In this document: positions 9,406-64,000 of the stretch, piece after piece
Layout: each line of letters begins with the position of its first letter
Position numbering within the stretch: the first letter of the stretch is position 1
DNA from: an uncultured Fidelibacterota bacterium
GTDB lineage: Bacteria; Fidelibacterota; Marinisomatia; Marinisomatales; Marinisomataceae
Length of the DNA: 64,000 bases
Direction of reading: 5' to 3'
Assembly (NCBI GenBank): GCA_902578385.1
Contig: CACHCR010000001.1
Span: 146,371 to 210,370 of the forward strand
Program-made: the position numbers and the translations under genes
The notes under the pieces: generated by a model
What the model was told of the DNA's origin: nothing
Seen by the model: only the letters and a program-made list of their open reading frames with translations
The model's database searches: none

Positions 9406-10263
9406 TTAAGTAGTTTTAGAAGCTCTTTTCCAAAAATAAGTCACTAAACTAAGAGTTAGAAACCAGCTAATAAGTTCTGTTGAAGTCGGATTACCATTGT
9501 ATCCAAAGAATCCTTTAAACAGTTGTCCTATTGCACCTTTATCACTCAGTAATGGTTTTGGTGTACCGTTATTATCAATATTAAATCCAAAAACAGGACC
9601 CTTATCATTGACATTCCATACTTCCATTTGTTTCATTTCTTCCTTGGTATAGAAGGCTTCTTCAAATTCGTGAACACCATAAGCAACTAAGCCTGCACAT
9701 ACAAAAATTAAAAGAATAGATGTTACATTAAAAAATTGTTTTAAAGGCACCCTTTTACCTTGCACAAATATTGAATATCCAATCATAAGAGCTACCAATG
9801 ATCCAATAATAGATCCACTTATAGAAAGACCATCAGATTGAATGACAATAGCATACATAAATAGCACTACTTCTACACCTTCTCTAAAAATTGCAAAAAA
9901 GGTTAGGGCAAAAAGACCTAATGATACATTTTTATCTTTTTCGATAATATCGGAAGCTTCTTTTTCAAGGCTAGCAGCAACATTCTTATTTCTTCCCATC
10001 CAAATAATCATTGTAGAAAGAAGAAATGCAGCTATAAGCATTGTTGTTCCTTCAAATAGTGCTGCCTGCCTTCCCTCAAATCCACCATAAGCTATTTGAA
10101 ATATTACTGCGAATATTCCAGTAGCAATAAAGGAAGCAATTACTCCATTAATAATACTTTTCTTAAGGTGTTCTCTACCAGTTTTTACAATGAAGGTATA
10201 TAGAATTCCAACAACAAGAACTCCTTCAAGCACTTCTCTAAACATAATTAAAAATTCACTCAT
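9406..10263 (-). CDS. FTR1-family high-affinity iron permease
   Basis: Two REXXE-type motifs (FREVLEG and FREGVEV) in a polytopic membrane protein, the hallmark of the FTR1/EfeU family. Confidence 0.8.
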   Translation of the reverse strand: MSEFLIMFREVLEGVLVVGILYTFIVKTGREHLKKSIINGVIASFIATGIFAVIFQIAYGGFEGRQAALFEGTTMLIAAFLLSTMIIWMGRNKNVAASLEKEASDIIEKDKNVSLGLFALTFFAIFREGVEVVLFMYAIVIQSDGLSISGSIIGSLVALMIGYSIFVQGKRVPLKQFFNVTSILLIFVCAGLVAYGVHEFEEAFYTKEEMKQMEVWNVNDKGPVFGFNIDNNGTPKPLLSDKGAIGQLFKGFFGYNGNPTSTELISWFLTLSLVTYFWKRASKTT

Positions 10264-10274
10264 AATTTCCCCTT

Positions 10275-10332
10275 TTGAGATTTAGTCTCAATATTAGGAG
10301 TGTAATATATACAGAATTTTTAATTCATTCAA
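10275..10332 (-). promoter_or_regulatory. Candidate sigma70-like promoter (TTGAAT-17 nt-TATATT) followed by the 17-bp palindrome TTGAGActaaaTCTCAA, just upstream of the FTR1 gene
   Basis: Read on the minus strand: -35 at 10332..10327, -10 at 10309..10304, palindrome at 10291..10275. This is a motif match only. Confidence 0.3.
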
Positions 10333-10357
10333 GTTGAGTTGATGTAATAAAAAAGAA

Positions 10358-10801
10358 TTATTCAACAATCATGTAGCCACGCATTGAACCTGCATGCGCA
10401 ATGTATGTACATACATACAAATATTTACCAGGTTTTTTAGGTGCTTCAAACTCAATGGTTGTTTCTTCTTGTTTATCTATCAATATAGATTTTACTAAAA
10501 TACGACTATCGTCGTAAGGATCTCCACCATTACCTTCAGCAAGTTGAATTATTTGTGGAGCAGCTGACTCATCTTTAAAAATCACAATGTTATGCTGCAT
10601 TTCTCCCATAAAGTCTAAAGGTGAATTGTTTTTTAGAACAATTTTTACTTTTGAACCCGCTTTTACAGTGAATTCTTCAACATCGTATTTCATCTCAGAA
10701 CCTAATGATCCAATATTTACTACCTGTGCTTCTTGTGGAGCTCCACCACCGCATGCAATAAATATGAATACTGAAAGTATTAACAATAATTTGTTATACA
10801 T
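10358..10801 (-). CDS. Azurin-like type 1 copper (cupredoxin) lipoprotein
   Basis: Lipobox ...FIFIAC/GGG. MQHNIVIF resembles azurin MGHNWVL. The C-terminal YVCTYIAHAGSMRGYM gives Cys-His-Met copper-ligand spacing like azurin FFCTFPGHSALMKG. Confidence 0.7.
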   Translation of the reverse strand: MYNKLLLILSVFIFIACGGGAPQEAQVVNIGSLGSEMKYDVEEFTVKAGSKVKIVLKNNSPLDFMGEMQHNIVIFKDESAAPQIIQLAEGNGGDPYDDSRILVKSILIDKQEETTIEFEAPKKPGKYLYVCTYIAHAGSMRGYMIVE

Positions 10802-20236: not shown

Positions 20237-23200
20237 ATGAAAAAGATTTTAATATTTTTTCTATTCTTAGGAGGATTATTTAGTAATGATTCTTTAGAAA
20301 AAATTACGTTTAATCCATTTAAAAATTCTCAAAAAGCTAATTACTCTTTAAATGATATATCAAATTATCCAATTGGAATTTTCCAATTTGATAGAAAGTA
20401 TCTTGATTATCAAGTTTCGTTTAATTCTACATTTGATAATATAGTTATTAGTGAAAAAATTTTGAGTTCTAATAGTTTAATTCCATACATATCTACATTT
20501 GATGACTATATAAGTAATTTATATTCCTCTAATCAGAGATTTAATCTTTTGCAACCTTTTACTCTTTCAGCGTCCGATACAACAATAAATAAAAAATCAG
20601 ATAGATTTATGCAAATTGCAGATATTGATTTGGGTGCACTAGGAAGAGCTTCATTGAGAGTTCAAGGTAATATTAATTTATCAGGAAAACTGGTAAATCA
20701 GGATCAGGAATTAGTTCGTTCATCTTTTAGAGAGCAAGAAAAAACAAACTTTAAATTTGATCAAAAACAGCAATTAAATGTTCAAGGTAAAGTTGGTGAA
20801 CGAATCACTGTATCACTCGACCAAAACTCTGAACGTGATTTTGATTGGGAAAATACTATTAGAGTAGACTATAAAGGTGAAGAAGATGACATATTACAAA
20901 AATTAGAACTTGGTAATATATCACTATCGCTCCCTTCTACCGAGTTTGTTACATTTTCAGGCCAAAACAAAGGTCTATTTGGAGTAAAAGCCCTTTCAAA
21001 ACTTGGTCCAGTAAATATTACTAGCATCGCATCATTAGAAAAAACTAAAAAACAGTCACAAAGGTACAAGGGTACTTCAGAATTAAAAGAGAACCAGATT
21101 CAGGATTATGATTATAGAAAGAATTTATACTTCTTCATCCATGATTGGTTTAGAAATGGCTCTACAGATACTATTGATGAGAGCGGATATACACTTTCTA
21201 TTCCATCATATTACCCTCTTGTTAATGGCCTTCATCCTATTGGTAATGTTGTTGTTAAAAATTTTGAATTGTATAAAATTGATGCATCAAATAATCCGCA
21301 GGCCGATCCAGGAATTGCCCATATTAATCCTAATGATACATCTCAATTTGCTGACAAAAGTAAAGAAGGTGCTTTTATTAGGCTGGAAAGAGGAACTGAT
21401 TATAGTATAAATGAAGATTTAGGTTTTATACGAATGCAGAGTTCATTACAAAATGAAATTATTGCTGCACATTATCAGCTTGTTGATAGATCTACAGGTC
21501 AATTAATTATTCAAATTGGTCAAGGAATAACTAGCGATAATACAAGCCTTATTTTAAAAATGATCAAGGCACAATCTTCGCACCCAAATCATCCTGTATG
21601 GGATTTGATGTTTAAAAACGTTTATTCAATGGGTTCTACAAATGTAGATGCTCAAAGTCTTGAGGTGCAAATTATAGATAATTTTTCAACTCCAGTAAGT
21701 GATAGAGCAAATAACGGGACAACCTTTTTAAATCTTTTTGGATTAGATAATTTTAATCAATCTGGAGCTCAATCACCTGACGAAGTAATTGATTATAATA
21801 ACCCAAATATTGTTAATTTAGTAACAGGTGAAATTCATTTACCTGCACTACTACCTTTTGTATCAGCTGATGTTATTCAAGGCGGAAATGACAATTCAGA
21901 TCTGTCTGATTTTTTACAGCAAGGGAAAATGTATACAACTTCTAATAGGACAGAATATACTGGCGATGCAAGATTTACAATAAATGCAAATTATACAAAT
22001 CCTAAGTCAACAATTAGTCTAGGATTTACGCTGGTTGAGGGTAGTGAAGAGATTTTATCAAATGGCGAGAAGCTTGAAAGAGGAACAGACTACCAAATTG
22101 ATTATTTCTCAGGAATTATTATGCTTACTGGTAATATAGATCCAAATAGTGATTTAGAAATATCTTATGATAAACATGACCTAGTTACTTTTGATAGGAA
22201 GATTATGGTTGGATCTCGTGCACAAATTGATTTTGATGAAAAATCCTTTTTAGGACTTACTGCGCTTTATTATAATCAAGATATTGTTAATAAAAAAGTT
22301 GAAGTAGGATATGAACCAATTCAAAATTTTATTTGGGATATAAATGGTAGGTTTGAAAAAGACCTCGATAATTTCTCAGCAAGGCTAAACCAGCTTAGCT
22401 TTCTTAATGCAGACAAAATATCAAACTTTTCCATTGAGGGTGAAATTGCTCAAGTTCTACCAAATCCTAATTCAATATCTAATCCTCGTACCGGAGATGG
22501 GAATGGAGTAGCATTTATAGATGATTTTGAGGGTTCAAAAAGAGTAACTAACCCTTCAATTTTAAGAAGATTTTGGAATATTTCATCTGCGCCAGTTGAT
22601 ATTGATACTAATCAAGAATATGAACAAAGAAATAGATTAAAGATGTTTTGGTATAACCCTTATTCTCAAGTATTGACCAATAATATTTGGCCAAATGTTT
22701 CAACCTCGCAAAGAGCGCAAAATCTTACTACAGATGTGCTAGTATTAAAATATAAACCACAAGAATTTCAATCATCAGTAGAACCCGACTCACTATGGGC
22801 AGGTATTATCACACCTATGTTCATTGGGGATTATGATCAAACAAGGACTAGATTTTTTGAAATTTGGCTTAGAGGGGATGAAGGAAATTTAACTATAGAC
22901 CTTGGTAAGATAAGTGAAGACTATAACGGGAATGGTGTATTAAATACAGAAGATGTGCCAGATGCTGGACTTGCATTAGGTAATGGATTTTTAGAAGATA
23001 GTGAAGATACTGGGCTAGATGGTTGTTTCAATGAATATGAAGATGGATTTGGTGGTTGTTTGGAGCCAACTGGACTTACATACCTTGAATACTTAGCTAA
23101 TGGAGAGACTCAATTGATTAATGCTTCATCGGATGTAGATCCAAATGATCCCAATAGTGATGACTGGAGTTATTCCGAAGGAAGTTCAGATTATGAGAAA

Positions 23201-26200
23201 GTCAATGGTACAGAAGGAAATGGTACTGGAGATAGAATCCAAACAGGTGGTAAATATCCTGATACAGAAGATTTAGATAAATCAGGATTTTTAGATAGAA
23301 CTAATGATTATTTTACTAAGACCATTTCTTTAGATGATAGTACTTATGTTGCTGGTTCAACAGAAGTAGATGGTATTAAAACTGGTTGGAAATTAATTAG
23401 AGTCCCTTTAAGTCATTTTGATAAAATCCAAGACATATCCCTCAGTGAAATAAAATCCGTAAGATTGGTTGTATCTGGAGTAACCGAAGAGACACAACTA
23501 GAAATAGCAAAAATTGAGTTAGTTGGTAACGCATGGCAAGAGCTTGGAACCTCATTAGTTAATACCGATTCATATGCTGTTGAAGATAGCACTTTTATTG
23601 TATCAGTCATTAATGATGAAGATAACCCAAATTATGTTCCTCCAAAGGGAGTGTTTGGCGAATATGATCAAATCAATCAGATTAGATCAAAAGAACAATC
23701 ACTAGTTTTACAATTTGAAAATCTTGATCCTAACTATAAAGGAGCTGCGAAAAAAATTCTAGCAATGGATGAGAAAAAAGGACAGAGTTTTTTAATGTAT
23801 GATAGAATGAAGATGTTTGTTTATGGAAATAGTGATTTTGCTTCAAGCGAAGAAACTGATTTAAGATTCTTTATTCAATTCGGCAATGGAGATGAATATT
23901 ATAAAGTTACAAAACCTGTTTATGATACTTGGGATGAAGATTTAAAAAGAAACGAAATTAATTTAGACTTGAATTGGCTTACTGCACTAAAAAATGAAAC
24001 CAATGATTCCATCAGTCTTATTGGAACAAATGATTCTTTTACTGATTCTACTGATTATAAAGAATACAGCTTTGTCGATGAATCAAGTAAAATTTATAAG
24101 AATGTCGAGATTGTAGGTAATCCATCCCTTTCAAGATTGCAATATTTCATTGTTGGGGTAGAAAATGACTCGGATCATCCTATTAGCGGAGAAATATGGC
24201 TAGACGAACTTAGATTAAGTGGAGTAAAAAAAGAAACGGGAACTGCTGTGAGGTTAAAATCAAAATTTAATTTATCAGATTTAAGTAATAGTACATTTTC
24301 TTATAGCAGGAAAGATGCAGATTTTCATGTCCTCCAAGAACGAATTGGTACCAATCAAACTGTAGAAAATTTTACATTTAACAATAATATCCAGTTGGGG
24401 AATTTTTTCCCAAGCAAGTTTGGAATTGCTTTCCCAATAAATACTAGCTACAATGTGATTAATAACTCTCCAAAATTTTTCCCTGGTACTGATATAAGAA
24501 CAAACGGAACTCCGCCAGATTCTGTTATGGTTAAATCTTCAACAATAAATGTAACTGGTAAAATTTCAAAAAGAGTTAAGTCCGAAAACCCATTTATTAA
24601 ATACTCAATTGATAATTTAAGTGCAGGGTTTAATGTATCTTCACAGAAAAAGTCAGATTCAATCATGGAATCTATAGATGCTAGCAAGTTAAGCACTAAT
24701 GTCGATTATAATTTAAGATTCCCTAGCGATAATTATATTGAGGCATTTAAGTGGGCTGAAAATGTTCCACTAATCGGCGAAAAATTAAGTGAAACTAGAT
24801 TTTTCTATACACCATCTACATTTACTAGCGGGATTAGAGTTAATAGAAATTTGACAGAGAAAGTATCTAGAAAAAATTCTGAATTAATTGAAGATTTTAA
24901 TCTTGGTTTGGAAAGAAGATTTTCTTTTAATTACAAAGTTTTTGATAACACCCAATTAAATTATACTAAAAATATTAGAAGTGATATGTCTGATTATAGA
25001 GATGAAGTTTTATCAAAATTAAAAATTGGTTCTCTTACAAATTTAACTGAAACATTTAACTATACATCCAGTCCACAATGGCTAAATTGGTTTAAACCAA
25101 ATTTCTCTTATAATACAAACTATTCGTGGAATAAACCCCGCAATGGTGTAGTTGATGCAGCTAATTTGAACTTGGTAAAGAATACCGGTTTAAATTTTTC
25201 GATCTCTCCTACAGAAATTATAGAAATATTTTATACACCAGTGTCAAAAAGAGAAAGTAATTCTGCTCCACCTCGAACAAGATCGAGAGGATTAGCTAGT
25301 TTTAATCCTGAAGAAGAAGATAAAGATGAAGAAGAAAAAACACCAAAAAACAATAATAGAAAAACTTTAGAAAATAACTTTGCACTTGAAAGAATATATA
25401 ATGAATCTAAAAAAATTGAACCTCTTACGATCACTATTTCGAATATTACTACACAAGTTTCAAATGGTATAGATGGAGATATTCCATTATCATATCGTTT
25501 AGGATTTAAAGATAATCTTAATGTAGAATCTGTACCTGAAGTAGGGTTGAATACAGGAAATGAAGATATCAAGAAATCATTTTCAGCCCGAACTGGTGTA
25601 CGATTTAATCCACAATCTTCTTTGATGATTTCATTTAACGAAAGTATCTCTTCAAATATAAATGGATATAATATAGATATTCGCTCTACTACAAGAGATT
25701 ATATTGCATTTGGTAGTTATTTATCTGAGGGATTGCCATTCTCAAACTGGTCTTTGAGAGTTGGTGGACTTGAAAATATCAATTTTATTAAACCATATGT
25801 TTCTTCAATGTCAATCGAGCATGCTTTTAATGGAAAACAAAATTTATCATGGAAATTTAATGAAGGGGGAGTCACACCAATAAATCTTTTAAGCATTTCA
25901 TCATTTGAAAATAATAATAATGACAATCTTCAGTTCTCAAGAATTTCAAGATCATTCTCTCCTTTAATTGGAATAAGTTCAACTTTTAACAACGGAATTT
26001 CAACAAATGTAAGAAGCAATATCACCCACACCCTAGATGAAGTAGCTAATGGCTTAACATATATCTCAGATAACAGCATTCTTGCAACTATTACATATAA
26101 TTTTTCAAAAGGTATAAGATTTTCTCTGCCATTTTCTGAAAGAAATATATATTTAAGAAATAATATGAATATTAGCTTAAACTTAGACTTTTCCAATAAA

Positions 26201-26407
26201 ACAGAAGAAGGATCAAAGGATAAGATAAATTTTGTTGAACAAAATTTCACAAATACTCAAAAAAGTATTTTGAGAATTACTTATACTTTAACGGATGATA
26301 TTACTGGTAGTTTATTTTATGAATATAGAGAAACTGATACACGTTTGACTGGACGAAGAATTGATAGAGATTTTGGAATAAATTTAAATGTCGCAATAAG
26401 GGGATAA
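20237..26407 (+). CDS. sprA: T9SS outer-membrane translocon SprA/Sov
   Basis: 2056 aa. The N-terminal conserved block ...VDYKGEEDDILQKLELGNISLSLP...GQNKGLFGVKALSKLGPVNITSIASLEK matches my recollection of the SprA family signature. Giant beta-barrel-like composition throughout. The start immediately follows the rdgB stop. Confidence 0.75.
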   Translation: MKKILIFFLFLGGLFSNDSLEKITFNPFKNSQKANYSLNDISNYPIGIFQFDRKYLDYQVSFNSTFDNIVISEKILSSNSLIPYISTFDDYISNLYSSNQRFNLLQPFTLSASDTTINKKSDRFMQIADIDLGALGRASLRVQGNINLSGKLVNQDQELVRSSFREQEKTNFKFDQKQQLNVQGKVGERITVSLDQNSERDFDWENTIRVDYKGEEDDILQKLELGNISLSLPSTEFVTFSGQNKGLFGVKALSKLGPVNITSIASLEKTKKQSQRYKGTSELKENQIQDYDYRKNLYFFIHDWFRNGSTDTIDESGYTLSIPSYYPLVNGLHPIGNVVVKNFELYKIDASNNPQADPGIAHINPNDTSQFADKSKEGAFIRLERGTDYSINEDLGFIRMQSSLQNEIIAAHYQLVDRSTGQLIIQIGQGITSDNTSLILKMIKAQSSHPNHPVWDLMFKNVYSMGSTNVDAQSLEVQIIDNFSTPVSDRANNGTTFLNLFGLDNFNQSGAQSPDEVIDYNNPNIVNLVTGEIHLPALLPFVSADVIQGGNDNSDLSDFLQQGKMYTTSNRTEYTGDARFTINANYTNPKSTISLGFTLVEGSEEILSNGEKLERGTDYQIDYFSGIIMLTGNIDPNSDLEISYDKHDLVTFDRKIMVGSRAQIDFDEKSFLGLTALYYNQDIVNKKVEVGYEPIQNFIWDINGRFEKDLDNFSARLNQLSFLNADKISNFSIEGEIAQVLPNPNSISNPRTGDGNGVAFIDDFEGSKRVTNPSILRRFWNISSAPVDIDTNQEYEQRNRLKMFWYNPYSQVLTNNIWPNVSTSQRAQNLTTDVLVLKYKPQEFQSSVEPDSLWAGIITPMFIGDYDQTRTRFFEIWLRGDEGNLTIDLGKISEDYNGNGVLNTEDVPDAGLALGNGFLEDSEDTGLDGCFNEYEDGFGGCLEPTGLTYLEYLANGETQLINASSDVDPNDPNSDDWSYSEGSSDYEKVNGTEGNGTGDRIQTGGKYPDTEDLDKSGFLDRTNDYFTKTISLDDSTYVAGSTEVDGIKTGWKLIRVPLSHFDKIQDISLSEIKSVRLVVSGVTEETQLEIAKIELVGNAWQELGTSLVNTDSYAVEDSTFIVSVINDEDNPNYVPPKGVFGEYDQINQIRSKEQSLVLQFENLDPNYKGAAKKILAMDEKKGQSFLMYDRMKMFVYGNSDFASSEETDLRFFIQFGNGDEYYKVTKPVYDTWDEDLKRNEINLDLNWLTALKNETNDSISLIGTNDSFTDSTDYKEYSFVDESSKIYKNVEIVGNPSLSRLQYFIVGVENDSDHPISGEIWLDELRLSGVKKETGTAVRLKSKFNLSDLSNSTFSYSRKDADFHVLQERIGTNQTVENFTFNNNIQLGNFFPSKFGIAFPINTSYNVINNSPKFFPGTDIRTNGTPPDSVMVKSSTINVTGKISKRVKSENPFIKYSIDNLSAGFNVSSQKKSDSIMESIDASKLSTNVDYNLRFPSDNYIEAFKWAENVPLIGEKLSETRFFYTPSTFTSGIRVNRNLTEKVSRKNSELIEDFNLGLERRFSFNYKVFDNTQLNYTKNIRSDMSDYRDEVLSKLKIGSLTNLTETFNYTSSPQWLNWFKPNFSYNTNYSWNKPRNGVVDAANLNLVKNTGLNFSISPTEIIEIFYTPVSKRESNSAPPRTRSRGLASFNPEEEDKDEEEKTPKNNNRKTLENNFALERIYNESKKIEPLTITISNITTQVSNGIDGDIPLSYRLGFKDNLNVESVPEVGLNTGNEDIKKSFSARTGVRFNPQSSLMISFNESISSNINGYNIDIRSTTRDYIAFGSYLSEGLPFSNWSLRVGGLENINFIKPYVSSMSIEHAFNGKQNLSWKFNEGGVTPINLLSISSFENNNNDNLQFSRISRSFSPLIGISSTFNNGISTNVRSNITHTLDEVANGLTYISDNSILATITYNFSKGIRFSLPFSERNIYLRNNMNISLNLDFSNKTEEGSKDKINFVEQNFTNTQKSILRITYTLTDDITGSLFYEYRETDTRLTGRRIDRDFGINLNVAIRG

Positions 26408-31039: not shown

Positions 31040-31414
31040 TTATTTTTTAACTTTAGCTTTTTTCGCAGCTGGTTTTTTCGCAGCTGGTTTTTTTGTTTTT
31101 GCTGCTGAAATAGATTGAATTTGCAATAAAGTAAGATCTTGACGATGACCACGTTTTCTTTGATAGCCTTTTCGTCTTTTTTTCTTGATAACAGTTACTT
31201 TTGCATCCCTTGAATGTTCAAGAACTTTAGCACTTACGTTATACTTTGCTAAATCTTTTGCATCAAAAAGATTCTTATCTTTATCAGATACAGCTTTTAC
31301 ATTATCAAACTTTATAGTTTTACCTTCAGCAACATCAATCTTAGAATTAACTAAAACGGTGTCGCCTTTAGCGACCTTATACTGTTTTCCATATATTTCA
31401 ACAATTGCAAACAT
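31040..31414 (-). CDS. rplU: 50S ribosomal protein L21 with a Lys/Ala-rich C-terminal extension
   Basis: MFAIVEIYGKQYKV... is the canonical L21 start. The tail ...AAKTKKPAAKKPAAKKAKVKK is encoded by a short tandem DNA repeat. Confidence 0.9.
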   Translation of the reverse strand: MFAIVEIYGKQYKVAKGDTVLVNSKIDVAEGKTIKFDNVKAVSDKDKNLFDAKDLAKYNVSAKVLEHSRDAKVTVIKKKRRKGYQRKRGHRQDLTLLQIQSISAAKTKKPAAKKPAAKKAKVKK

Positions 31415-39155: not shown

Positions 39156-39572
39156 ATGTCAGTCAAAGAACTAAATAAAATAGATGAAGTTATATGTCCT
39201 TGTGATAAGCAAGAAGAAATAATTGCATCTGAGATTGGTGAAAATCTTAAATGCCCGAAATGTAATGCACATTTAAAGCAAAGGGCTTACTTACCTTTTC
39301 TCGAGTATTTGATGGAAAATGGATTTGTCCAAAATCTAGATTTTTTTGATTTAGATCTCTACAGTCAAGATAAAGAGTCGCTTTATAGTACGGATGAAGA
39401 ATTAGATTTAGATAAATATGAAGTTAGAAAAGATAGCTTAAATATTTATGAAGATGATGCAAAGTATGGTGGCAATAGCACTGTTGCAGCTGAAACCGAA
39501 ACATCTATAGATGAATCAGCAGTTTCCAGTGACTGGACTAAATTTGCGACAGAAGACGAAGAATCTGAATAA
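39156..39572 (+). CDS. Hypothetical zinc-ribbon protein with a long acidic tail
   Basis: CPCD...18 aa...CPKC, then a D/E-rich C-terminal half. No family recognised. Confidence 0.4.
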   Translation: MSVKELNKIDEVICPCDKQEEIIASEIGENLKCPKCNAHLKQRAYLPFLEYLMENGFVQNLDFFDLDLYSQDKESLYSTDEELDLDKYEVRKDSLNIYEDDAKYGGNSTVAAETETSIDESAVSSDWTKFATEDEESE

Positions 39573-44808: not shown

Positions 44809-45333
44809 TTAATAGAGGCCAAGTTGTAATTTTGCTGCATCGCTCATCATATCTTGATTCCACTGTGGTTCCCATACGAGTTCAACTTCCACTGCTTTTG
44901 CACCACTAAGTGACAATAATTTTTGTTTTACTTCATCAGCAATTACAGGACCCATCCCACAGCCTGGAGCAGTAAGTGTCATTTGAATTATAATATTGAC
45001 TCCACCTTCTTCTTCCTTAATCTCACAATTATAAACAAGTCCAAGATCAACAATATTTACAGGAATTTCAGGATCATAGCACGTATGTAAAACATTCCAT
45101 ACCTCTTCTTCGTTAGCAAAGTTATTAGAACTTAGTTCTCTTTTTTCTTCACCAATTTTCTCACCATCTATACCATTTAATTGATACATATTTCCTTCTA
45201 CCACTATAGTATAATTGTCACCTAAAGATTGAGAAATAATACCTTTTTTACCTTTTTCTAATGTTGTTCTAATTCCATCAGGAACACTATGAACTATTAT
45301 GTCTTCTAATATTGTAAACTCTTTATGCATCAT
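44809..45333 (-). CDS. sufT: SufT-like long-form DUF59 Fe-S assembly protein
   Basis: The C-terminal DUF59 core (CYDPEIPVNIVDLGLVY...TLTAPGCGMG) is preceded by an N-terminal domain of about 70 aa, as in the long SufT family. Confidence 0.6.
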   Translation of the reverse strand: MMHKEFTILEDIIVHSVPDGIRTTLEKGKKGIISQSLGDNYTIVVEGNMYQLNGIDGEKIGEEKRELSSNNFANEEEVWNVLHTCYDPEIPVNIVDLGLVYNCEIKEEEGGVNIIIQMTLTAPGCGMGPVIADEVKQKLLSLSGAKAVEVELVWEPQWNQDMMSDAAKLQLGLY

Positions 45334-57659: not shown

Positions 57660-57733
57660 GGTGACTGTAGCTCAGTTGGTAGAGCCATCGGTTGTGGTCC
57701 GATTGGTCGTCGGTTCGAGTCCGATCAGTCACC
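57660..57733 (+). tRNA. tRNA-His (anticodon GTG) with encoded G-1
   Basis: G GTGACTG TA GCTC AGTTGGTA GAGC C ATCGG TTGTGGT CCGAT TGGTC GTCGG TTCGAGT CCGAT CAGTCAC C. Confidence 0.9.
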
Positions 57734-57743
57734 CGAAAATTTT

Positions 57744-57818
57744 CGGGGTGTAGCGTAGTCCGGTTAGCGCACCTGCTTTGGGAGCAGGGGGTCGCAGGTT
57801 CAAATCCTGCCACCCCGA
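57744..57818 (+). tRNA. tRNA-Pro (anticodon TGG)
   Basis: CGGGGTG TA GCGT AGTCCGGTTA GCGC A CCTGC TTTGGGA GCAGG GGGTC GCAGG TTCAAAT CCTGC CACCCCG A. Confidence 0.9.
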
Positions 57819-57846
57819 CAAAATTTCTTATTTTAATCAAATCACC

Positions 57847-58059
57847 ATGAAACATTTAGAACACTCAAAATGGACAGCAATTAAAAAAGTGCAAAACTGG
57901 CGCCATTATGAAGTATTAAACATCAATAAAAAGAAGAAAATGGTTGAAATGTTTTCCGTGTGTGACAAAAAGATTAGAATTGAGGTATCTTTTAATGATC
58001 TTGTTGATAATTCTAAGTGGATGAGTGGTTGGATTGAAATTGTCGAAGAAAGTGCTTAA
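57847..58059 (+). CDS. Small Trp-rich protein (TIGR02450-like)
   Basis: 70 aa from the ATG at 57847 (the longer ORF overlaps tRNA-Pro). SKWTAIKKV...HYEV...W..GW resembles my recollection of the Trp-rich family. Confidence 0.45.
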   Translation: MKHLEHSKWTAIKKVQNWRHYEVLNINKKKKMVEMFSVCDKKIRIEVSFNDLVDNSKWMSGWIEIVEESA

Positions 58060-59173: not shown

Positions 59174-60202
59174 ATGTTATCATCACAATTTTTAATTGAT
59201 CAAAAACAATGTTGCGGAAATGGATGTATGATGTGTCCATATGAACCTCAACACATCCAAGGAAACCAACAATTACAAAAAAGATGGAATCAATCCGAAA
59301 AAAAATCGTATACTACTCATATGAATAAAATAAATATCCCGATGATTGGACTTGGAACATGGCTCATTCCTAATGATGAAGCTGAATCTATTACTAAAGA
59401 TGCCATAAACTTAGGTTATAAGCATATTGATACTGCTCAAGTATATCAAAATGAAGAAGGTATCGGAAACGCACTCAAATCTTTAGGTGTTCCAAGGAAT
59501 GAAATTTATATCACTACAAAAATGTGGCCTGGAATGTTCAATCAAGATGAACCATTTCAAACATTTGATGGTGCAATCAAAGCTTGTGAACAAAGTTTGA
59601 AATTTTTACAGGTTGATGAAATAGATTTATATCTTATTCATAACCCATTTGCAAAAGAAAATAGGTTAGAGCTATGGGAAGCTATGATAGAATTAAAAAA
59701 ACAAGGAAAAGCCAAACATATTGGTGTTTCAAATTATAATGTACATCACATTGAAGAAATTGAAGCAGCAGGAATCGAAATGCCATCAGCTAATCAAATT
59801 GAAATTCATCCATGGCATGTAGTTTCAAAGTTTTTAGCAGAATATATGGACAAGCATGAAATTCTTCCAATTGCCTACTCTACATTAGCTCCAATTCCTA
59901 ATTGGAGAGAAGGTTCAAGATGGAATGGGAAACCAGAGGATATGAAAAGTGGAGCAATGCCTTGCGAAGATATTGCAAATCAATATGGTGTTACAGTTCC
60001 ACAATTATTTTTAAAATGGGCGATTCAACTTGGATATCCTGTTTTACCAAAATCTGTAAAATATGATCGACTTAAAGAAAATTTAAACTTAGATCATTTC
60101 GAAATTTCACTTGATGATATGACTACCATTTCAAATATAGCAATTGATGAACAAAAATGTCTTGCTTGGTCAGGAGACTTTGATCCTCTTGATGTTAAAT
60201 AA
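59174..60202 (+). CDS. Aldo/keto reductase with an N-terminal extension of about 49 aa carrying a CCxxGCxxC motif
   Basis: AKR core from MNKINIPMIGLGTW.. with the catalytic residue context (IDTAQVYQNE, TKMW, LIHNP). The extension contains QCCGNGCMMCPYEP, resembling the Oxidored-like CC.sGC..C motif. An alternative start at M50 (59321) would drop the extension. Confidence 0.75.
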   Translation: MLSSQFLIDQKQCCGNGCMMCPYEPQHIQGNQQLQKRWNQSEKKSYTTHMNKINIPMIGLGTWLIPNDEAESITKDAINLGYKHIDTAQVYQNEEGIGNALKSLGVPRNEIYITTKMWPGMFNQDEPFQTFDGAIKACEQSLKFLQVDEIDLYLIHNPFAKENRLELWEAMIELKKQGKAKHIGVSNYNVHHIEEIEAAGIEMPSANQIEIHPWHVVSKFLAEYMDKHEILPIAYSTLAPIPNWREGSRWNGKPEDMKSGAMPCEDIANQYGVTVPQLFLKWAIQLGYPVLPKSVKYDRLKENLNLDHFEISLDDMTTISNIAIDEQKCLAWSGDFDPLDVK

Positions 60203-60214
60203 ATAAATTATTAT

Positions 60215-60646
60215 CTACTCATCAGCACTATCATTTTCAAAAACAATTATGGTACTTCCAAACGATCCATCTAAATATTCCCATCCTTCATCATTCAAAT
60301 AATGTTCACCACTCACAAAATTAAGCTCATATTCAAGTTCTTCTTTATCATAATTTGAATCTTCTGCCAATACTGCATTCCAAACACTTTTGCAATCGTC
60401 TAAAGACCACGTATATGTATTACTTATATAAGGACCATCATCATCAAATTCAAATGTTGAAGGATCGTCTTCACTCTGAGCATACATGAGTGCATCAAGC
60501 ACATTTTCATCATCAAGAGTAAATGTCCAGGTTCCTCCTGTCCAAACTCTATCTTCATATACACCATCATCTCCTTTTTTGAATGATACAGATTCTTCTG
60601 TGCTTACGTTTCTAAATGTATAAGTTTTTCCAATTTCAAATTTCAT
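60215..60646 (-). CDS. Small highly acidic cytosolic protein, unknown function (array member 7)
   Basis: 143 aa, D/E/W-rich, no signal peptide. The start overlaps the upstream stop (TAATG). Confidence 0.6.
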   Translation of the reverse strand: MKFEIGKTYTFRNVSTEESVSFKKGDDGVYEDRVWTGGTWTFTLDDENVLDALMYAQSEDDPSTFEFDDDGPYISNTYTWSLDDCKSVWNAVLAEDSNYDKEELEYELNFVSGEHYLNDEGWEYLDGSFGSTIIVFENDSADE

Positions 60647-61344
60647 TACTTTTCTCCTTCCTTAATTCTTTGAATCCAATCAGTTTCTTCACTAAAGTCA
60701 CTTTCTAAGTTATTTAAAAGAACTTCATTATATTCATCATCCCATAATTCTTCTTCCCACCATTCATAAACTTCTTTCATAACAGGCTTAACTTGATTCC
60801 ATAAAATTAGTCCTTGTTCATCATCTAATGATGGTACAGGATTCCACTTCCACTCAATTATTTTTCCACTTGAAGAATCAATTGTTGGACCATTCCAAAC
60901 ATTTCCATCCAATGAATCTAGAGCACGCTTTTGTGGACTTTCCCATAATCCATCATTGTCAAAATCATCATGAAGTAATTCCCAAGTTTTATCATAGCCT
61001 GCCTTTAAACATCTTGCTGACCACTCAAAATCTAATGCTTTTTCTGCTGCAATTTTTGCAATTTTAAAAAAGTTTTCTTCATGAATGGCAATTTTTTCAG
61101 CACGATGAAGCCATTTTATAGCTTTTTCTTTGTCGTAATCAAAAAGTAATTCTGCAAGTTCTGGTACTTCATTAAAATTTTCTTCATCATCTAAAATTGG
61201 TTCAGATCGTAATAAAAGCTCTAAACCCCAATCAGTTTCACCAGCTTTGAATACGTCTTTGATCAATGAAAGTACTCTATAAGCATGTAATTCAGATTTT
61301 TGAAATTCTTCTTGTTCTCTTTTTTTAAAATCTTCTAAACTCAT
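60646..61344 (-). CDS. Acidic Trp-rich cytosolic protein, unknown function (array member 6)
   Basis: 232 aa, helical N-terminal half, W/E/D-rich C-terminal half (EWKWNP..., YEWWEEELWDDEY). Confidence 0.6.
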   Translation of the reverse strand: MSLEDFKKREQEEFQKSELHAYRVLSLIKDVFKAGETDWGLELLLRSEPILDDEENFNEVPELAELLFDYDKEKAIKWLHRAEKIAIHEENFFKIAKIAAEKALDFEWSARCLKAGYDKTWELLHDDFDNDGLWESPQKRALDSLDGNVWNGPTIDSSSGKIIEWKWNPVPSLDDEQGLILWNQVKPVMKEVYEWWEEELWDDEYNEVLLNNLESDFSEETDWIQRIKEGEK

Positions 61345-61369
61345 ATCTCTCTCTTCAATTGATTCAAAA

Positions 61370-62092
61370 TTATCTTTTTATCCAACCCGCAAATTTACCT
61401 GCAATAAAATTAATTTCAGATGGCATGTCGTCTAAATTTTCTTTATTTGAAATTACAAATGTAAATTTATCAAATATAATTTCTGGAGAAACGTAGGTAG
61501 GGTTTTCAACAGTATATCCCTTTGATTTTAAAAAATCAACCCAGTCAGAAAATGCTACTTCCTTTTCATGCATTTCAATACAAACCTCTTTAATTTTTTC
61601 AATCTCTTCTAAGTGCTCTTTAGCAGGAACAACTTTTGGCTCTGATGATTCTTTTATTTCATAATCATCTTCATAATCATCTTCAGACTCTTGAATATCT
61701 GTTTCAAATAAATGGGTATTTTTCTCTTTATCAAAAACAATTTCTGCAGAAAGACTTTCAGTATCCCCTCCACAAGATAAGTACAATTCAAAAGTTAAAC
61801 TATCTTCAAATATCTCATATAAAACTTTTAATGTTTCATTGTTTAAAGCGCCTTCGCCCAATCCAATTGAACCTTCCGTAGAATCAGCAATCTGCATACA
61901 AAACTTGTTGTAGTTTTTATCGTACTCTCTACTGTAAACAGATACACCTGACTCATAAGCACTCTTACTTATTAAGTAAATCGACTTATCATCTTTTTCA
62001 AATGGAATATTATTTGATTCTAATTTTTGTATTTTTTCTTCTGATAAATTAGTAATTGCACTACTTTCTAATTCTAAAAAAACTTTCGCCAT
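61370..62092 (-). CDS. Acidic cytosolic protein, unknown function (array member 5)
   Basis: 240 aa, with the central linker ESEDDYEDDYEIKESSEP. Preceded by conserved junction element R1. Confidence 0.6.
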   Translation of the reverse strand: MAKVFLELESSAITNLSEEKIQKLESNNIPFEKDDKSIYLISKSAYESGVSVYSREYDKNYNKFCMQIADSTEGSIGLGEGALNNETLKVLYEIFEDSLTFELYLSCGGDTESLSAEIVFDKEKNTHLFETDIQESEDDYEDDYEIKESSEPKVVPAKEHLEEIEKIKEVCIEMHEKEVAFSDWVDFLKSKGYTVENPTYVSPEIIFDKFTFVISNKENLDDMPSEINFIAGKFAGWIKR

Positions 62093-62094
62093 CC

Positions 62095-62130
62095 CTCACT
62101 CCTTTATATTGATTCTAAATAAGTTTACCA
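62095..62130 (-). repeat. Conserved cassette-junction element, copy R1
   Basis: Minus-strand reading: tGGTAAACTTATtTAGAATCAATATAAAGGAGTGAGggATG. Near-identical to R2 and R3. Here GGT AAA CTT ATT TAG encodes the real C-terminus (GKLI*) of the 62115..62777 gene. Confidence 0.85.
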
Positions 62131-62777
62131 TCTTCATCGAAGTTTCTAACTGATCCAGTAATAAGATCATCATTTTCCCAATTAGATTCTTCTTTCAATT
62201 TTCCATTATCATGGTACAATTTTTTTAGACCATGAATTTTACCATTCTCATAATGCATATCAACTAATATATTTCCATTTTCATAGAACATCTTTCTTGT
62301 TCCATGCAGTTCACCGTCCTTATAAAAACCCTCTTCTTTAATATTGCCATTTTTATGATGTAACTGATATGGACCTTCGTTAAAATCATCGCTTAAGACC
62401 TCTTGTTTTTCAGTGCCAGGTTCTTCTACTTCTCTGTATTTCTTAATTATATCCCCAGCAGAATCAAAAGATGTTATTTCTCCATCAATATTAATAGAAA
62501 AATCTCCTTCAAAATAAAGATCAAAATCATGTCGCAATTCAGATAGAGTACGGACAATATCATATTCACTAATTTTTTGCTTTTCAATTACAATATCTGA
62601 ATCATGAGGAAATTCTCCATTAAACAATATATATCCATCATTGTCATGTTCAAAATTGTATCCTAAAGCAGCATAAACTGAATTGTCTTTACCATCATCA
62701 GTCCATTCAGCTATTTCTGTGGCTTTGCCCTCATTACATACGTCAATTGATTTCAAATTAAAAATATATTTTACCAT
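62115..62777 (-). CDS. MORN-variant repeat protein, YwqK antitoxin/immunity-like C-terminal half (array member 4)
   Basis: C-terminal repeats G.Y..HHKNGNIKEEGFYKDGELHGTRKMFYENGNILVDMHYENGKIHGLKKLYHDNGKLKEE, as in MORN_2/YwqK-family proteins. Confidence 0.6.
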   Translation of the reverse strand: MVKYIFNLKSIDVCNEGKATEIAEWTDDGKDNSVYAALGYNFEHDNDGYILFNGEFPHDSDIVIEKQKISEYDIVRTLSELRHDFDLYFEGDFSINIDGEITSFDSAGDIIKKYREVEEPGTEKQEVLSDDFNEGPYQLHHKNGNIKEEGFYKDGELHGTRKMFYENGNILVDMHYENGKIHGLKKLYHDNGKLKEESNWENDDLITGSVRNFDEDGKLI

Positions 62778-62786
62778 AAAAAATTT

Positions 62787-62820
62787 TCACTCCTTTATAT
62801 TGATTCTATATAAGTTTACG
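62787..62820 (-). repeat. Conserved cassette-junction element, copy R2
   Basis: Minus-strand reading: CGTAAACTTATATAGAATCAATATAAAGGAGTGAaaattttttATG. Confidence 0.85.
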
Positions 62821-62823
62821 ATA

Positions 62824-63384
62824 TTAATCAGAATAAATTTCTTCTTTACCCGTAATACTTAAGCTTGCTCTTTTAGCTTCGTCTTCACTGTAAACTGAAA
62901 TTGTTTCACCATCTAATACAAGATTTGGATCAATATCTTCTTCTGCATCCCATTCATAATCTTCTAAAATTTCTATATCACGAATTACAACTAAAGCTAA
63001 TAAGTCATATGCATCTGGATTTAATCTTTGACTGGTACAAATAAGATTTAAGTTTGTTAATTTATTGCACTTCGTTAAATCAGAAATACTGTCAAGTGAT
63101 TCACACCAACTTAAATCCAATTCTTCAAGGTCAGTGAGATTTGCTACACCATTGATATTTCCAAGATTTATACATTTAGAAAGATTGAGTGCATTGACTT
63201 TTGGGAAGAAAGATAAAAAATCAACATTTATTAAGGACTTTTGTCCAGAAAAATCTAATTCTGTAACATCTTTAAAATTAGTATTATCGATTTCTAAGCT
63301 GGCTAAAAAACTTTCTGCATCAGATGTTGTTTTTTCTAAACTTAAACTTAGTTGTTCTAACATTTCATTATAATGTTCACCCAT
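62824..63384 (-). CDS. Leucine-rich repeat protein, cytosolic (array member 3)
   Basis: Three to four ~23-aa LRRs with Cys at a conserved position (VNALNLSKCINLGNINGVANLTD / LEELDLSWCESLDSISDLTKCNK / LTNLNLI...), followed by an acidic tail. Confidence 0.6.
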   Translation of the reverse strand: MGEHYNEMLEQLSLSLEKTTSDAESFLASLEIDNTNFKDVTELDFSGQKSLINVDFLSFFPKVNALNLSKCINLGNINGVANLTDLEELDLSWCESLDSISDLTKCNKLTNLNLICTSQRLNPDAYDLLALVVIRDIEILEDYEWDAEEDIDPNLVLDGETISVYSEDEAKRASLSITGKEEIYSD

Positions 63385-63386
63385 CT

Positions 63387-63422
63387 CTCATTCCTTTATA
63401 TTGATTCTATATAAATTAACCA
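63387..63422 (-). repeat. Conserved cassette-junction element, copy R3
   Basis: Minus-strand reading: tGGTtAAtTTATATAGAATCAATATAAAGGAaTGAGagATG. Confidence 0.85.
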
Positions 63423-63427
63423 TATTT

Positions 63428-63655
63428 CTAAATTTCAGAAAATATCTCAACACTTAATACAAAATCTTCAGTTGAAATATCTTCCAAATGTGGCAACAAA
63501 TCTTCTAAAAGTTTATCGTCTGGATTTTTCGAACTTAAATCAGATATGAATTCGTATGCGTCGTCAGTCTCCCAACTATCTATTTCATCAAACTCTATTG
63601 AATATTCTTTCTCTAAATGCACTAAACCATTAACGATTATATTTGTAATGTCCAT
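63428..63655 (-). CDS. Very small acidic protein, unknown function (array member 2)
   Basis: 75 aa, D/E-rich, no hydrophobic segment. Confidence 0.5.
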   Translation of the reverse strand: MDITNIIVNGLVHLEKEYSIEFDEIDSWETDDAYEFISDLSSKNPDDKLLEDLLPHLEDISTEDFVLSVEIFSEI

Positions 63656-63676
63656 AGTAATCTCTACCCTAATAAT

Positions 63677-64000
63677 TTATGCCATTGGAAGTTTTGTTAC
63701 TGGCAATTTAATTTCTTTATCAAAAAAATCTTTTTTTAAAAAAGAAAATATTTTCTCTGAATTTGAGGAATCAATCTCTAAATCTTCATCAAGCAATGAA
63801 TTTTTAATATCACTCATTTGGAAGGCATATAAGTGAAATAAAGAGTTATCAATTTTGAAATATATTTCAAAGTCAATACTCCCATCCCATCCTTCATCGT
63901 CTCCATTTTGAAAAAATGATTGGTCACCATACTGGTAGGCAGTAACTAAATCATATTCACCTATTGCCTTAATTTTATTGGGGTCAAATTGTTCTGTTTC
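63677..64000 (-). CDS. Partial ORF (C-terminal 107 codons; start outside the window), acidic, unknown function (array member 1)
   Basis: Own translation of the minus strand is open from base 64000 to the TAA at 63679..63677: ...GDDEGWDGSIDFEIYFKIDNSLFHLYAFQMSDIKNSLLDEDLEIDSS...KEIKLPVTKLPMA*. Not in the ORF track because it runs off the edge. Confidence 0.5.
   Translation of the reverse strand, partial: ETEQFDPNKIKAIGEYDLVTAYQYGDQSFFQNGDDEGWDGSIDFEIYFKIDNSLFHLYAFQMSDIKNSLLDEDLEIDSSNSEKIFSFLKKDFFDKEIKLPVTKLPMA

Follow-up and report, generated by a model that had tools for sequence, protein, structure and literature searches.

A 64,000-nucleotide (nt) stretch of chromosome from an uncultured Fidelibacterota bacterium (Marinimicrobia, SAR406; contig CACHCR010000001.1, positions 146,371 to 210,370 of the forward strand), referred to as the window in what follows, ends in a run of small minus-strand genes, g1 to g7, that converge on a conserved aldo-keto reductase (AKR) gene. 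The view that these genes form a leader-tagged, recombination-shuffled cassette array, lodged in an island at an insertion hot spot where restriction and nuclease genes accumulate as well, is well supported. As to what the cassettes do, the reading that we rank first, with a probability of roughly 0.45 for architecture and function taken together, is that they represent a leader-tagged, shuffled repertoire of cytosolic binders of the immunity or inhibitor type. The first-pass annotation, made from the letters of the window alone, had noticed the array and proposed a poly-immunity or anti-defence island; the defining feature, which it missed, is a shared 46-nt leader together with the cassette shuffling that this leader marks. 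No description of such a leader-tagged array was found in the literature searched, nor anything relevant on Marinimicrobia genomic islands. To our knowledge, almost nothing is known of the flexible genome of these abundant, uncultured bacteria, or of how they deal with phages and competitors.

The leader is a 46-nt direct repeat (repeat family D1, including TATAGAATCAATATAAAGGAGTGAGAGATG) common to the intergenic regions 5' of g3, g4 and g5. On the coding strand it reads …AAATATCGTAAACTTATATAGAATCAATATAAAGGAGTGAGAG-ATG, an A/T-rich stretch being followed, at the 3' end, by a consensus Shine-Dalgarno sequence placed six bases before the ATG (AAATATCGTAAACTTATATAGAATCAATATAAAGGAGTGAGAGATG). All copies lie on the minus strand. 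The copy ahead of g3 (62089..62134), whose 5' half consists of the last g4 codons and stop, and the copy ahead of g4 (62780..62825) contain the 22-mer core without mismatch (62096-62117 and 62787-62808, respectively), and the copy ahead of g5 (63381..63426) contains it with one mismatch (63388-63409); these three occurrences in the 64-kb window compare with 0.00 expected. A degenerate leader (TTTTGAATCAATTGAAGAGAGAGAT, repeat family D16) precedes g2 at 61345..61369, and a leader-like sequence within the 3' end of g2 (approximately 60647..60672) provides the Shine-Dalgarno of g1. Given that Shine-Dalgarno-like motifs also occur 5' of some other window genes, the Shine-Dalgarno alone is not anomalous; the extended conservation is. 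The leader may play a regulatory role. Its RNA fold was not significant (z-scores +0.73, +0.74 and -0.56), its only palindrome is a 6-bp A/T one, TTATAT-N7-ATATAA, and Rfam returned no match of note. Sigma-70-type promoter-like sites numbered 22, versus 22.4 expected from shuffled sequence, and terminator-like sites 0. A fuzzy search allowing up to four mismatches found no copy of the leader in the Marinimicrobia reference loci (L023-L046; related loci are designated by L numbers throughout).

Contigs 98-100% identical to the window at the nucleotide level, from metagenomes and single-amplified genomes (SAGs), extend the array beyond the window and reveal its variability. The full array comprises nine co-directional genes in the order g9-g8-g7-g6-g5-g4-g3-g2-g1, with g7 in its complete form (233 aa), g8 (134 aa) and g9 (207 aa) reaching past position 64000, and the seven window open reading frames (ORFs) are its promoter-distal part. 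The first-pass annotation had recommended comparing the locus across related genomes and metagenome bins, and comparison between strains indeed uncovered presence/absence variation of g2, g4 and g7: g4 is missing from L001, L003 and L005, g2 from L006, L007 and L011, and g7 from L005 and L103. Three loci (L009, L010 and L013) have other cassettes ahead of a constant g1, which always adjoins AKR in L007-L014, and L103-L107 hold g9-g8-g6 only. Two indel junctions were read, those of g4 and g2, and each proved to be located within a leader or a sequence resembling one. Where g4 is lost, what remains between g5 and g3 is a composite, with its 5' portion from the g5-to-g4 leader and its 3' portion from the g4-to-g3 leader; where g2 is lost, the degenerate leader 5' of g2 has become fused to the leader-like sequence at the g2 3' end, and the junction in L007 reads GAATCAAT on its one side and GAATTAAGGAAGGAG on the other. 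As a separate observation, contig 1 of one SAG (GCA_902568115.1; L008, L001) ends inside the array and a separate 7.9-kb contig holds the remainder, a break that could stem from the leader repeats or from within-population heterogeneity; such arrays may be under-assembled in metagenome-assembled genomes (MAGs).

Cassettes also occur at more than one place in the chromosome. Variants of the g5 cassette, all from the same 90%-identity cluster, were found at galK/SSF (L108-110), directly after obg (L112) and upstream of a DUF2779 gene (L111), with 93% amino acid identity between g5 and its counterparts in L108 and L111. At every site the leader accompanies the cassette, even as the first gene of an array, which implies that the leader belongs to the downstream ORF. 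The arrays are not limited to small orphans: in L137 (1-3009) the stretch between two leaders holds, in the same orientation, a TdeIII endonuclease and an m5C methylase gene, which make up a complete type II restriction-modification unit, meaning that defence genes occupy the same leader-bounded arrays, and in L171 an N6-methylase sits in a leader-flanked array, again in the same orientation.

Homologous recombination between leader copies would be the simplest explanation of this turnover, and we infer that it, rather than site-specific recombination, is at work. Could the leader instead be the site on which a dedicated tyrosine recombinase acts, its gene lying elsewhere in the genome, i.e. 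could this be a true integron or a rAID-type system? Co-directional cassettes with a repeated intergenic element, their cassette-precise gain and loss, the presence of the same cassette at several loci, and a Phage_integrase gene located 0.8 kb from a g2 homologue in L117 would all agree with it. We nevertheless consider it very improbable, for there is no recombinase at either end of the array or within the complete island, the element lies 5' of the ORF, contains the ribosome-binding site, and displays neither attC-like imperfect inverted repeats nor a fold signal, and the breakpoints are compatible with plain homologous recombination.

Of the systems described so far, the closest are the rAID-1 orphan-immunity arrays of Bacteroidales, which are defined by a 5' XerD-like recombinase (more than 44% identical to BF9343_RS08045), at least two co-directional downstream genes and low GC content, and which feature repetitive intergenic sequences and immunity homologues (bioRxiv 10.1101/471110). 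The two share long co-directional arrays of small unrelated genes (nine here), repetitive intergenic sequences, strain-variable content, hosts within the same FCB (Fibrobacteres-Chlorobi-Bacteroidetes) superphylum, and some repeat- or immunity-type members, here the YwqK-type MORN_2 protein g4. By contrast, the 5' end of the SAR406 array bears TerC and not a XerD-like recombinase; there are no toxin remnants and, except for MORN_2, no homology to immunity proteins of type VI secretion systems (T6SS) or polymorphic toxins; GC content is not skewed (0.300 in the array versus 0.313 elsewhere in the window); the repeat functions as a leader for translation at the 5' side of the genes, acidity is a nearly uniform trait of the cassettes, and the host lives free in the oligotrophic ocean. 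The array and its repeats are thus present, but recombinase, GC skew and immunity homology are absent. We place the SAR406 array among hypervariable cassette arrays. Chromosomal (super)integrons likewise draw on many promoterless orphan cassettes that all point the same way, with a conserved, species-specific repeat between them and presence/absence variation at the level of single cassettes, but assignment to them fails on intI, which is lacking in L001 and L182, and on attC architecture, the ~46-nt repeat being located 5' of the ORF and overlapping the ribosome-binding site.

For the shuffling mechanism, the nearest parallel is the PeSL system of T4-type phages, in which composite promoter/terminator (stem-loop) motifs populate hyperplastic regions (PMC2839356, PMC4122927). 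In both cases small orphan genes each follow a conserved regulatory motif, indels or replacements between close relatives occur at the motifs (here those of g4 and g2), and modular shuffling proceeds by homologous recombination, presumably so in the SAR406 array. The motif described here differs in being an unstructured, Shine-Dalgarno-containing leader in a bacterial chromosome, with no significant promoter or terminator signal and no stable stem-loop.

How large is the pool of cassettes on which such shuffling may draw? An exact scan of a metagenome collection with GAATCAATATAAAGGAGTGAG returned 60 marine contigs, and the loci considered (L001-L022, L103-L112 and L122-L181, all carrying arrays or the leader) amount to ~100 marine loci. 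The leader stands directly 5' of 111 distinct complete ORFs that form 50 BLAST-unrelated families with a median length of 177 aa and a median net charge of -12.3 per 100 aa; a charge of -8 per 100 aa or below is reached by 78% of these families versus 4.9% of 411 background Marinimicrobia ORFs. About 42 of 49 family representatives have no Pfam match at all, and the matches obtained for the others are MORN_2 (two families), PQQ-type beta-propeller, LRR, ankyrin, HAD-PNKP and GIY-YIG. Nearly all of the cassette proteins are orphans restricted to the lineage. Some distant kinship does exist: at least six BLAST families merge into one superfamily (leave-one-out hidden Markov model E-values 1e-13 to 6e-6) of 150-190-aa proteins that begin with a MAxVxh strand, share a GFG…FYxDL motif and finish in an acidic tail whose last residue is W or Y (…EDEYEDW). 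Its members are found in L013 (225-755), L007 (3-533), L129, L130, L154, L161 and L165, one of them sitting in the AKR-site array of other strains, and the superfamily comprises 22 clusters, none annotated and all marine. The tail is reminiscent of the acidic tails of single-stranded DNA-binding (SSB) or gp2.5-type proteins. By eye, the C-terminal region of g3 seems to resemble that of another leader-tagged family, and a 386-aa leader-tagged protein seems to combine an N-terminal domain of the g7 type with MORN-type repeats. The leader GAATCAATATAAAGGAGTGAG is a sequence handle with which the whole cassette pool can be retrieved from metagenomes and metatranscriptomes; through it, one can measure directly in natural populations what a hypervariable island contains, how it turns over and how it is expressed.

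The anatomy of the array in the window agrees in most respects with what the first-pass annotation had described. The ORF listing with its translations gives six complete minus-strand ORFs and a seventh cut by the window edge, and the claimed tight packing stands: the spacers from g1 to g7 measure -1, 25, 22, 46, 43 and 21 nt, and the g1 stop codon is 12 nt from that of the convergent AKR gene (60202). The claim of extreme acidity holds as well, with isoelectric points (pI) of 4.05-4.57, D+E contents of 21-29% and net charges of -11.4 to -25.3 per 100 aa; nearly all of the 48 other window ORFs of at least 120 aa fall between -7 and +4, the exceptions being 39156-39572 (-15.9), 44809-45333 (-9.2) and the basic 31040-31414 (+17.7). 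The proteins had also been called D/E/W-rich, which is correct for D and E in all seven but for W only in g1 (3.5%) and g2 (5.6%), the others containing ~1%. Their description as free of signal peptides and transmembrane helices is consistent with the finding that none contains a hydrophobic segment (maximum Kyte-Doolittle 19-residue mean at most 0.9, versus 2.3-2.4 in two membrane-protein controls). Of the two repeat proteins named, g4 was borne out, its PF07661 MORN_2 match (three repeats, residues ~120-220) scoring 63.2 bits versus a gathering cut-off of 29.6 (E 6.3e-18); g5, however, yielded only weak LRR matches in Pfam and NCBIfam that remained below the gathering score (best E 6e-4). 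The five proteins said to match nothing, g1, g2, g3, g6 and g7, gave no match in Pfam, NCBIfam, PHROGs or PADLOC, and all-against-all blastp detected no paralogy among the array proteins (E above 0.07).

Individually, the array proteins differ considerably. The array's last gene, g1 (60215-60646; 143 aa, pI 4.05), is a fast-evolving orphan and the constant anchor beside AKR; its homologues amount to 19 clusters among 5.8e9 proteins, its HMMER profile recovered 12 proteins from 1.84e9 representatives, and a profile scan of GTDB genomes found nothing, implying that the family is absent from species-representative genomes. One of the profile matches, a VCBS-like repeat protein, shares only a 'GGxWTFTLD'-like motif and was judged uninformative. 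The AlphaFold2 model of g1 was unusable, with a predicted local distance difference test (pLDDT) score of 44. Overlapping the g1 start by 1 nt, the strain-dependent g2 (60646-61344; 232 aa; family of six clusters among 5.8e9 proteins) is predicted to be a TPR/Sel1-like alpha-solenoid, its model (pLDDT 83.8, predicted template modelling score 0.83) consisting of well-packed, all-helical repeats. The orphan g3 (61370-62092; 240 aa) has two domains connected by a variable acidic DDYE repeat linker, so that the protein is 240 or 244 aa long, and the likewise strain-dependent g4 (62115-62777; 220 aa) combines an orphan N-terminal domain with the C-terminal YwqK-type repeats. They are followed by the LRR-like g5 (62824-63384; 186 aa), found as a cassette at several chromosomal sites, by g6 (63428-63655; 75 aa), which surpasses all the others in acidity (-25 per 100 aa) and is kept in the short array version (207-134-75) of L103-L107, and by the C-terminal 107 aa of g7 (63677..64000), which is present in full (233 aa) at L001 5458-6159. 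Three of the seven window proteins, g2, g4 and, on sub-threshold LRR evidence, g5, are thus putative protein-binding repeat scaffolds.

The array forms part of a larger island. In L182 the island, ~13 kb long, is inserted between the AKR gene (59174..60202, plus strand), a conserved core gene and the left boundary (island start 60203), and a DUF481 gene. The 5' end of the array is divergent from a TerC gene, after which comes a 141-aa TerB-like gene. The next position is taken by a PDDEXK_3 nuclease in some cases and by an 879-aa MORN protein in others, and beyond it lie an ATP-dependent DNA ligase, four further acidic ORFs, a BRCT protein that stands alone, a member of the DUF2779 nuclease family and a Cas4-like PD-(D/E)XK protein; to the right, the conserved DUF481, Peptidase_C92 and Peptidase_M1 genes resume. 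Island variants carry an extra GmrSD (L186) or KAP NTPase (L183). In the reference loci L023-L046, none of which has an acidic array, AKR is followed by a conserved block encoding proteins of 251 aa (+), 224 aa (-), ~882 aa (+), 158 aa and 282 aa. The block begins within a few bases of AKR in most of them, but in L023 and L029 unrelated genes are inserted first, which marks the AKR site as a hot spot. In the genomes of 25 other Marinimicrobia species, the 10 kb that follow AKR yielded none of the island genes.

Two broader claims of the first-pass annotation are upheld by these comparisons. That the locus is accessory is supported by gene content that differs among near-identical strains and by the lack of island genes in the 10 kb examined after AKR in the 25 species; that it is conflict-related agrees with the neighbours encountered in homologous loci, namely GmrSD, KAP NTPase, a type II restriction-modification pair, an N6-methylase, Cas4-like and PD-(D/E)XK nucleases, DUF2779 and an ATP-dependent ligase. 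The more specific proposal of a poly-immunity or anti-defence island fared less uniformly: an accessory, strain-variable locus in a conflict-type context with one YwqK-type member speaks for it, but no array protein matches a Pfam model of an Imm, SUKH, ArdA, Ocr or anti-CRISPR family, and it keeps the status of a conjecture drawn from acidity, repeat scaffolds and context.

What, then, might such a repertoire be for? We propose that recombination between leader copies would delete, insert and move cassettes within the array and between arrays at several chromosomal hot spots, and that the supply for this turnover would be shared across the population, comprising no fewer than 50 unrelated families that are confined to the lineage and are, in their great majority, small, cytosolic and strongly acidic. 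The cassette proteins would be binders or inhibitors with an immunity or anti-effector role, whose negatively charged surfaces, or whose MORN_2, LRR, TPR-like, Ank or beta-propeller repeats, may neutralise basic nucleic-acid-targeting proteins; the targets could be nuclease or deaminase toxins of competitors or mobile elements, or enzymes of phages and mobile elements. The array could in this way serve as a consolidated, rapidly reshuffled protective repertoire, analogous to the Bacteroidales rAID orphan-immunity arrays. An inhibitor function suggests itself because extreme acidity is uniform across unrelated folds, the proteins are cytosolic, binding scaffolds recur, the context is of the conflict type and at least one member evolves fast. 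Acidity is typical of immunity proteins directed against nuclease toxins. Zhang et al. (2012) reportedly described poly-immunity loci of polymorphic toxin systems as well as YwqK/MORN_2 immunity proteins. Such loci similarly line up small cytosolic proteins that are unrelated to one another, among them MORN_2, LRR, Ank, TPR and beta-propeller scaffolds. They differ from the present arrays in that here ~42 of the 49 families have no Pfam match and no linked toxin or secretion system was found.

Several observations weigh against this proposal. No toxin gene, toxin fragment or T6SS, Rhs, LXG or CdiA marker was detected in the window, the complete island or the ~100 related loci, the first-pass annotation having placed the partner, if any, beyond position 64000 or in trans; nor does an LXG or other polymorphic toxin gene, as expected beside a YwqK-type immunity gene, adjoin the array in the window, the complete island L182 or the neighbour families scanned. 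Imm, SUKH, SMI1_KNR4, ArdA, Ocr and anti-CRISPR models of Pfam match none of the 49 family representatives, and the seven window proteins have no counterpart among the curated immunity families in Pfam and NCBIfam, CdiI and Tsi included, except for MORN_2. The fold search that had been suggested was carried out with the g2 model, but Foldseek against PDB and BFVD returned only generic TPR/HEAT/Sel1 matches, none at E<=0.001; the sole orphan with a confident fold has a generic one. On the architectural side, g1, g6, g7, g8 and g9 have no canonical leader, no integrase or recombinase is encoded at the array, in the ~13-kb island L182 or in the ~100 related loci, and the leader could be merely a strong translation-initiation region that hitch-hikes with the cassettes. 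Finally, we know of no case in which contact-dependent antagonism has been established for dilute planktonic SAR406 cells.

A far-reaching version of the proposal holds that SAR406 maintains a recombinase-independent cassette system in which portable 46-nt leaders, serving to initiate translation and perhaps also as promoters or operators, tag a pan-genomic pool of dozens to hundreds of orphan acidic inhibitors that are shuffled by leader-to-leader recombination among hot spots together with restriction systems, forming an integron- or rAID-like repertoire against nucleic-acid-targeting toxins or phage enzymes. This is conceivable but, on balance, doubtful. If the acidic cassettes do inhibit nucleases or toxins, they would constitute a large untapped set of new inhibitor folds, and if their shuffling requires no dedicated recombinase, it would be a second, minimal route, beside that of integrons, by which adaptive gene arrays can be put together.

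Could the cassettes rather act on the host's own defences? If the island derives from a phage or from a mobile element that has integrated or decayed, the cassettes would be its anti-defence cargo, as DNA mimics or anti-restriction proteins that inhibit restriction or other defence enzymes of the host during transfer. Their extreme acidity and small size do resemble DNA mimics of the Ocr and ArdA type, which are also cytosolic and near restriction systems; the ATP-dependent ligase, HAD-PNKP, GIY-YIG, BRCT and PD-(D/E)XK genes of the island are frequent in phages; and L021, a 9-kb contig, holds only such genes, all on one strand. Weak relatives of the g1 N-terminus were moreover found in two IMG/VR contigs (L113 and L114, GC 38-40%), where acidic proteins of 139-149 aa encoded at ~10001-10420 are 34% identical to g1 over their first ~73 residues, the only link of any array protein to viruses. 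Yet the ~13-kb complete island contains no integrase, structural, replication-initiation or conjugation gene, i.e. no mobile-element hallmark; its ligase has no IMG/VR relative and just two partial, 27%-identical matches in 50,697 phage records; tblastn with g3 against the same records gave no match; and a leader 19-mer turned up in just two viral contigs, from phages otherwise unlike the island, which we read as chance. Pfam provides no ArdA, Ocr or Acr match, PHROGs and PADLOC give nothing of note for the window's array proteins, the array GC of 0.300 is close to the surrounding 0.313, and the island occupies the same chromosomal site in many strains. Taken together, this makes the anti-defence explanation quite unlikely.

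We are equally sceptical of the idea that the acidic cassettes are parts (sensors, decoys or regulators) of novel anti-phage defence modules that are shuffled with restriction-modification, GmrSD and KAP NTPase genes in a defence island. The co-oriented defence genes of leader-flanked arrays, i.e. TdeIII with its m5C methylase in L137, the N6-methylase in L171, and GmrSD/KAP NTPase in L145 and L186, speak for it, as do the different insertions at the hot spot in L023 and L029. Against this, the window's own array proteins have no PADLOC match, at least 50 unrelated single, small, non-enzymatic families are unlike known systems built from a sensor and an effector, and most cassettes are gained or lost singly and not as fixed multi-gene modules.

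Does the array need a common function at all? It might be a hyperplastic region of lineage-specific orphans, with the leader serving only as a portable strong ribosome-binding site, perhaps with a promoter, through which any captured or newly arisen ORF could be expressed, and acidity reflecting a filter for solubility or harmlessness instead of a shared class of targets. The families are indeed very narrow (6 to 22 clusters among 5.8e9 proteins), no homology is detectable between cassettes, and the hyperplastic regions of T4 likewise have orphans flanked by conserved regulatory motifs (PMC2839356, PMC4122927). Selection gives a mixed answer. The ratio of nonsynonymous to synonymous substitutions (dN/dS) of g1 is 0.56-0.76 with low dS (versus L021 and L015), close to neutral and far above its neighbours, which indicates either diversifying selection or relaxed constraint, but g5 (0.2) and g8 (0.11) are clearly under purifying selection when set beside the 0.07-0.16 of AKR and ligase. 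Invariant W, G and C columns, too, persist in alignments of homologues down to 58% identity, and the modelled g2 fold is confident and well packed. Furthermore, strong acidity is enriched 16-fold and protein-binding repeat scaffolds keep recurring, both of which suggest that the cassettes act in a common way, and streamlined SAR406 genomes would hardly carry kilobases of neutral genes. For these reasons we hold a functionally heterogeneous orphan nursery to be rather unlikely, and give precedence to the repertoire of inhibitor-type binders.

Some further features of the locus deserve mention. The intergenic region between the divergent TerC and g9 genes (L001 4266-4385) contains an 8-bp perfect inverted repeat, AGAGTCAA-N23-TTGACTCT, a candidate that could serve as operator for the array promoter. 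The pair of TerC and TerB-like genes that heads the island in L182 (1999-3192) and an 813-aa TerB-ankyrin fusion in a leader-bearing locus (L175 3996-6437) indicate that Ter-family membrane modules recur with the arrays. Only one other ORF in the window is comparably acidic, 39156-39572 (+), located outside the array; its 138-aa product has an N-terminal CxC…CPxC zinc-ribbon-like motif and no Pfam match.

Two tRNA genes, tRNA-His and tRNA-Pro, lie 10 nt apart near 57661-57819 (+) and 57778-58059 (+), 2.4 kb from the island. Integration linked to them was considered and ruled out, since the genes in between (DUF2389, desaturase and AKR) are conserved in other Marinimicrobia, and the island is therefore not at the tRNA genes. 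A listed 93-aa ORF begins inside tRNA-Pro, and the gene behind it is probably the ~70-aa DUF2389 protein as called in related loci.

SAGs and MAGs named Candidatus Marinimicrobia or Neomarinimicrobiota (SAR406) encode orthologues that share 94-95% of their residues with the AKR protein, and identities across Marinimicrobia genomes range from 70 to 95%. It possesses a Cys-rich N-terminal extension of ~50 aa (CCGNGCMMCPY), with a weak DUF5522 match in related loci, that is conserved in Marinimicrobia; the homologues in Actinomarina, Poseidoniales and Paenibacillus lack it. Elsewhere in the window, a 2056-aa homologue of SprA, the translocon of the type IX secretion system, is encoded at 20237-26407 (+), followed by an M28 peptidase, an Exo_endo_phos protein and a TPR protein; its presence implies that the organism is equipped for type IX secretion, in keeping with a place in the FCB superphylum.

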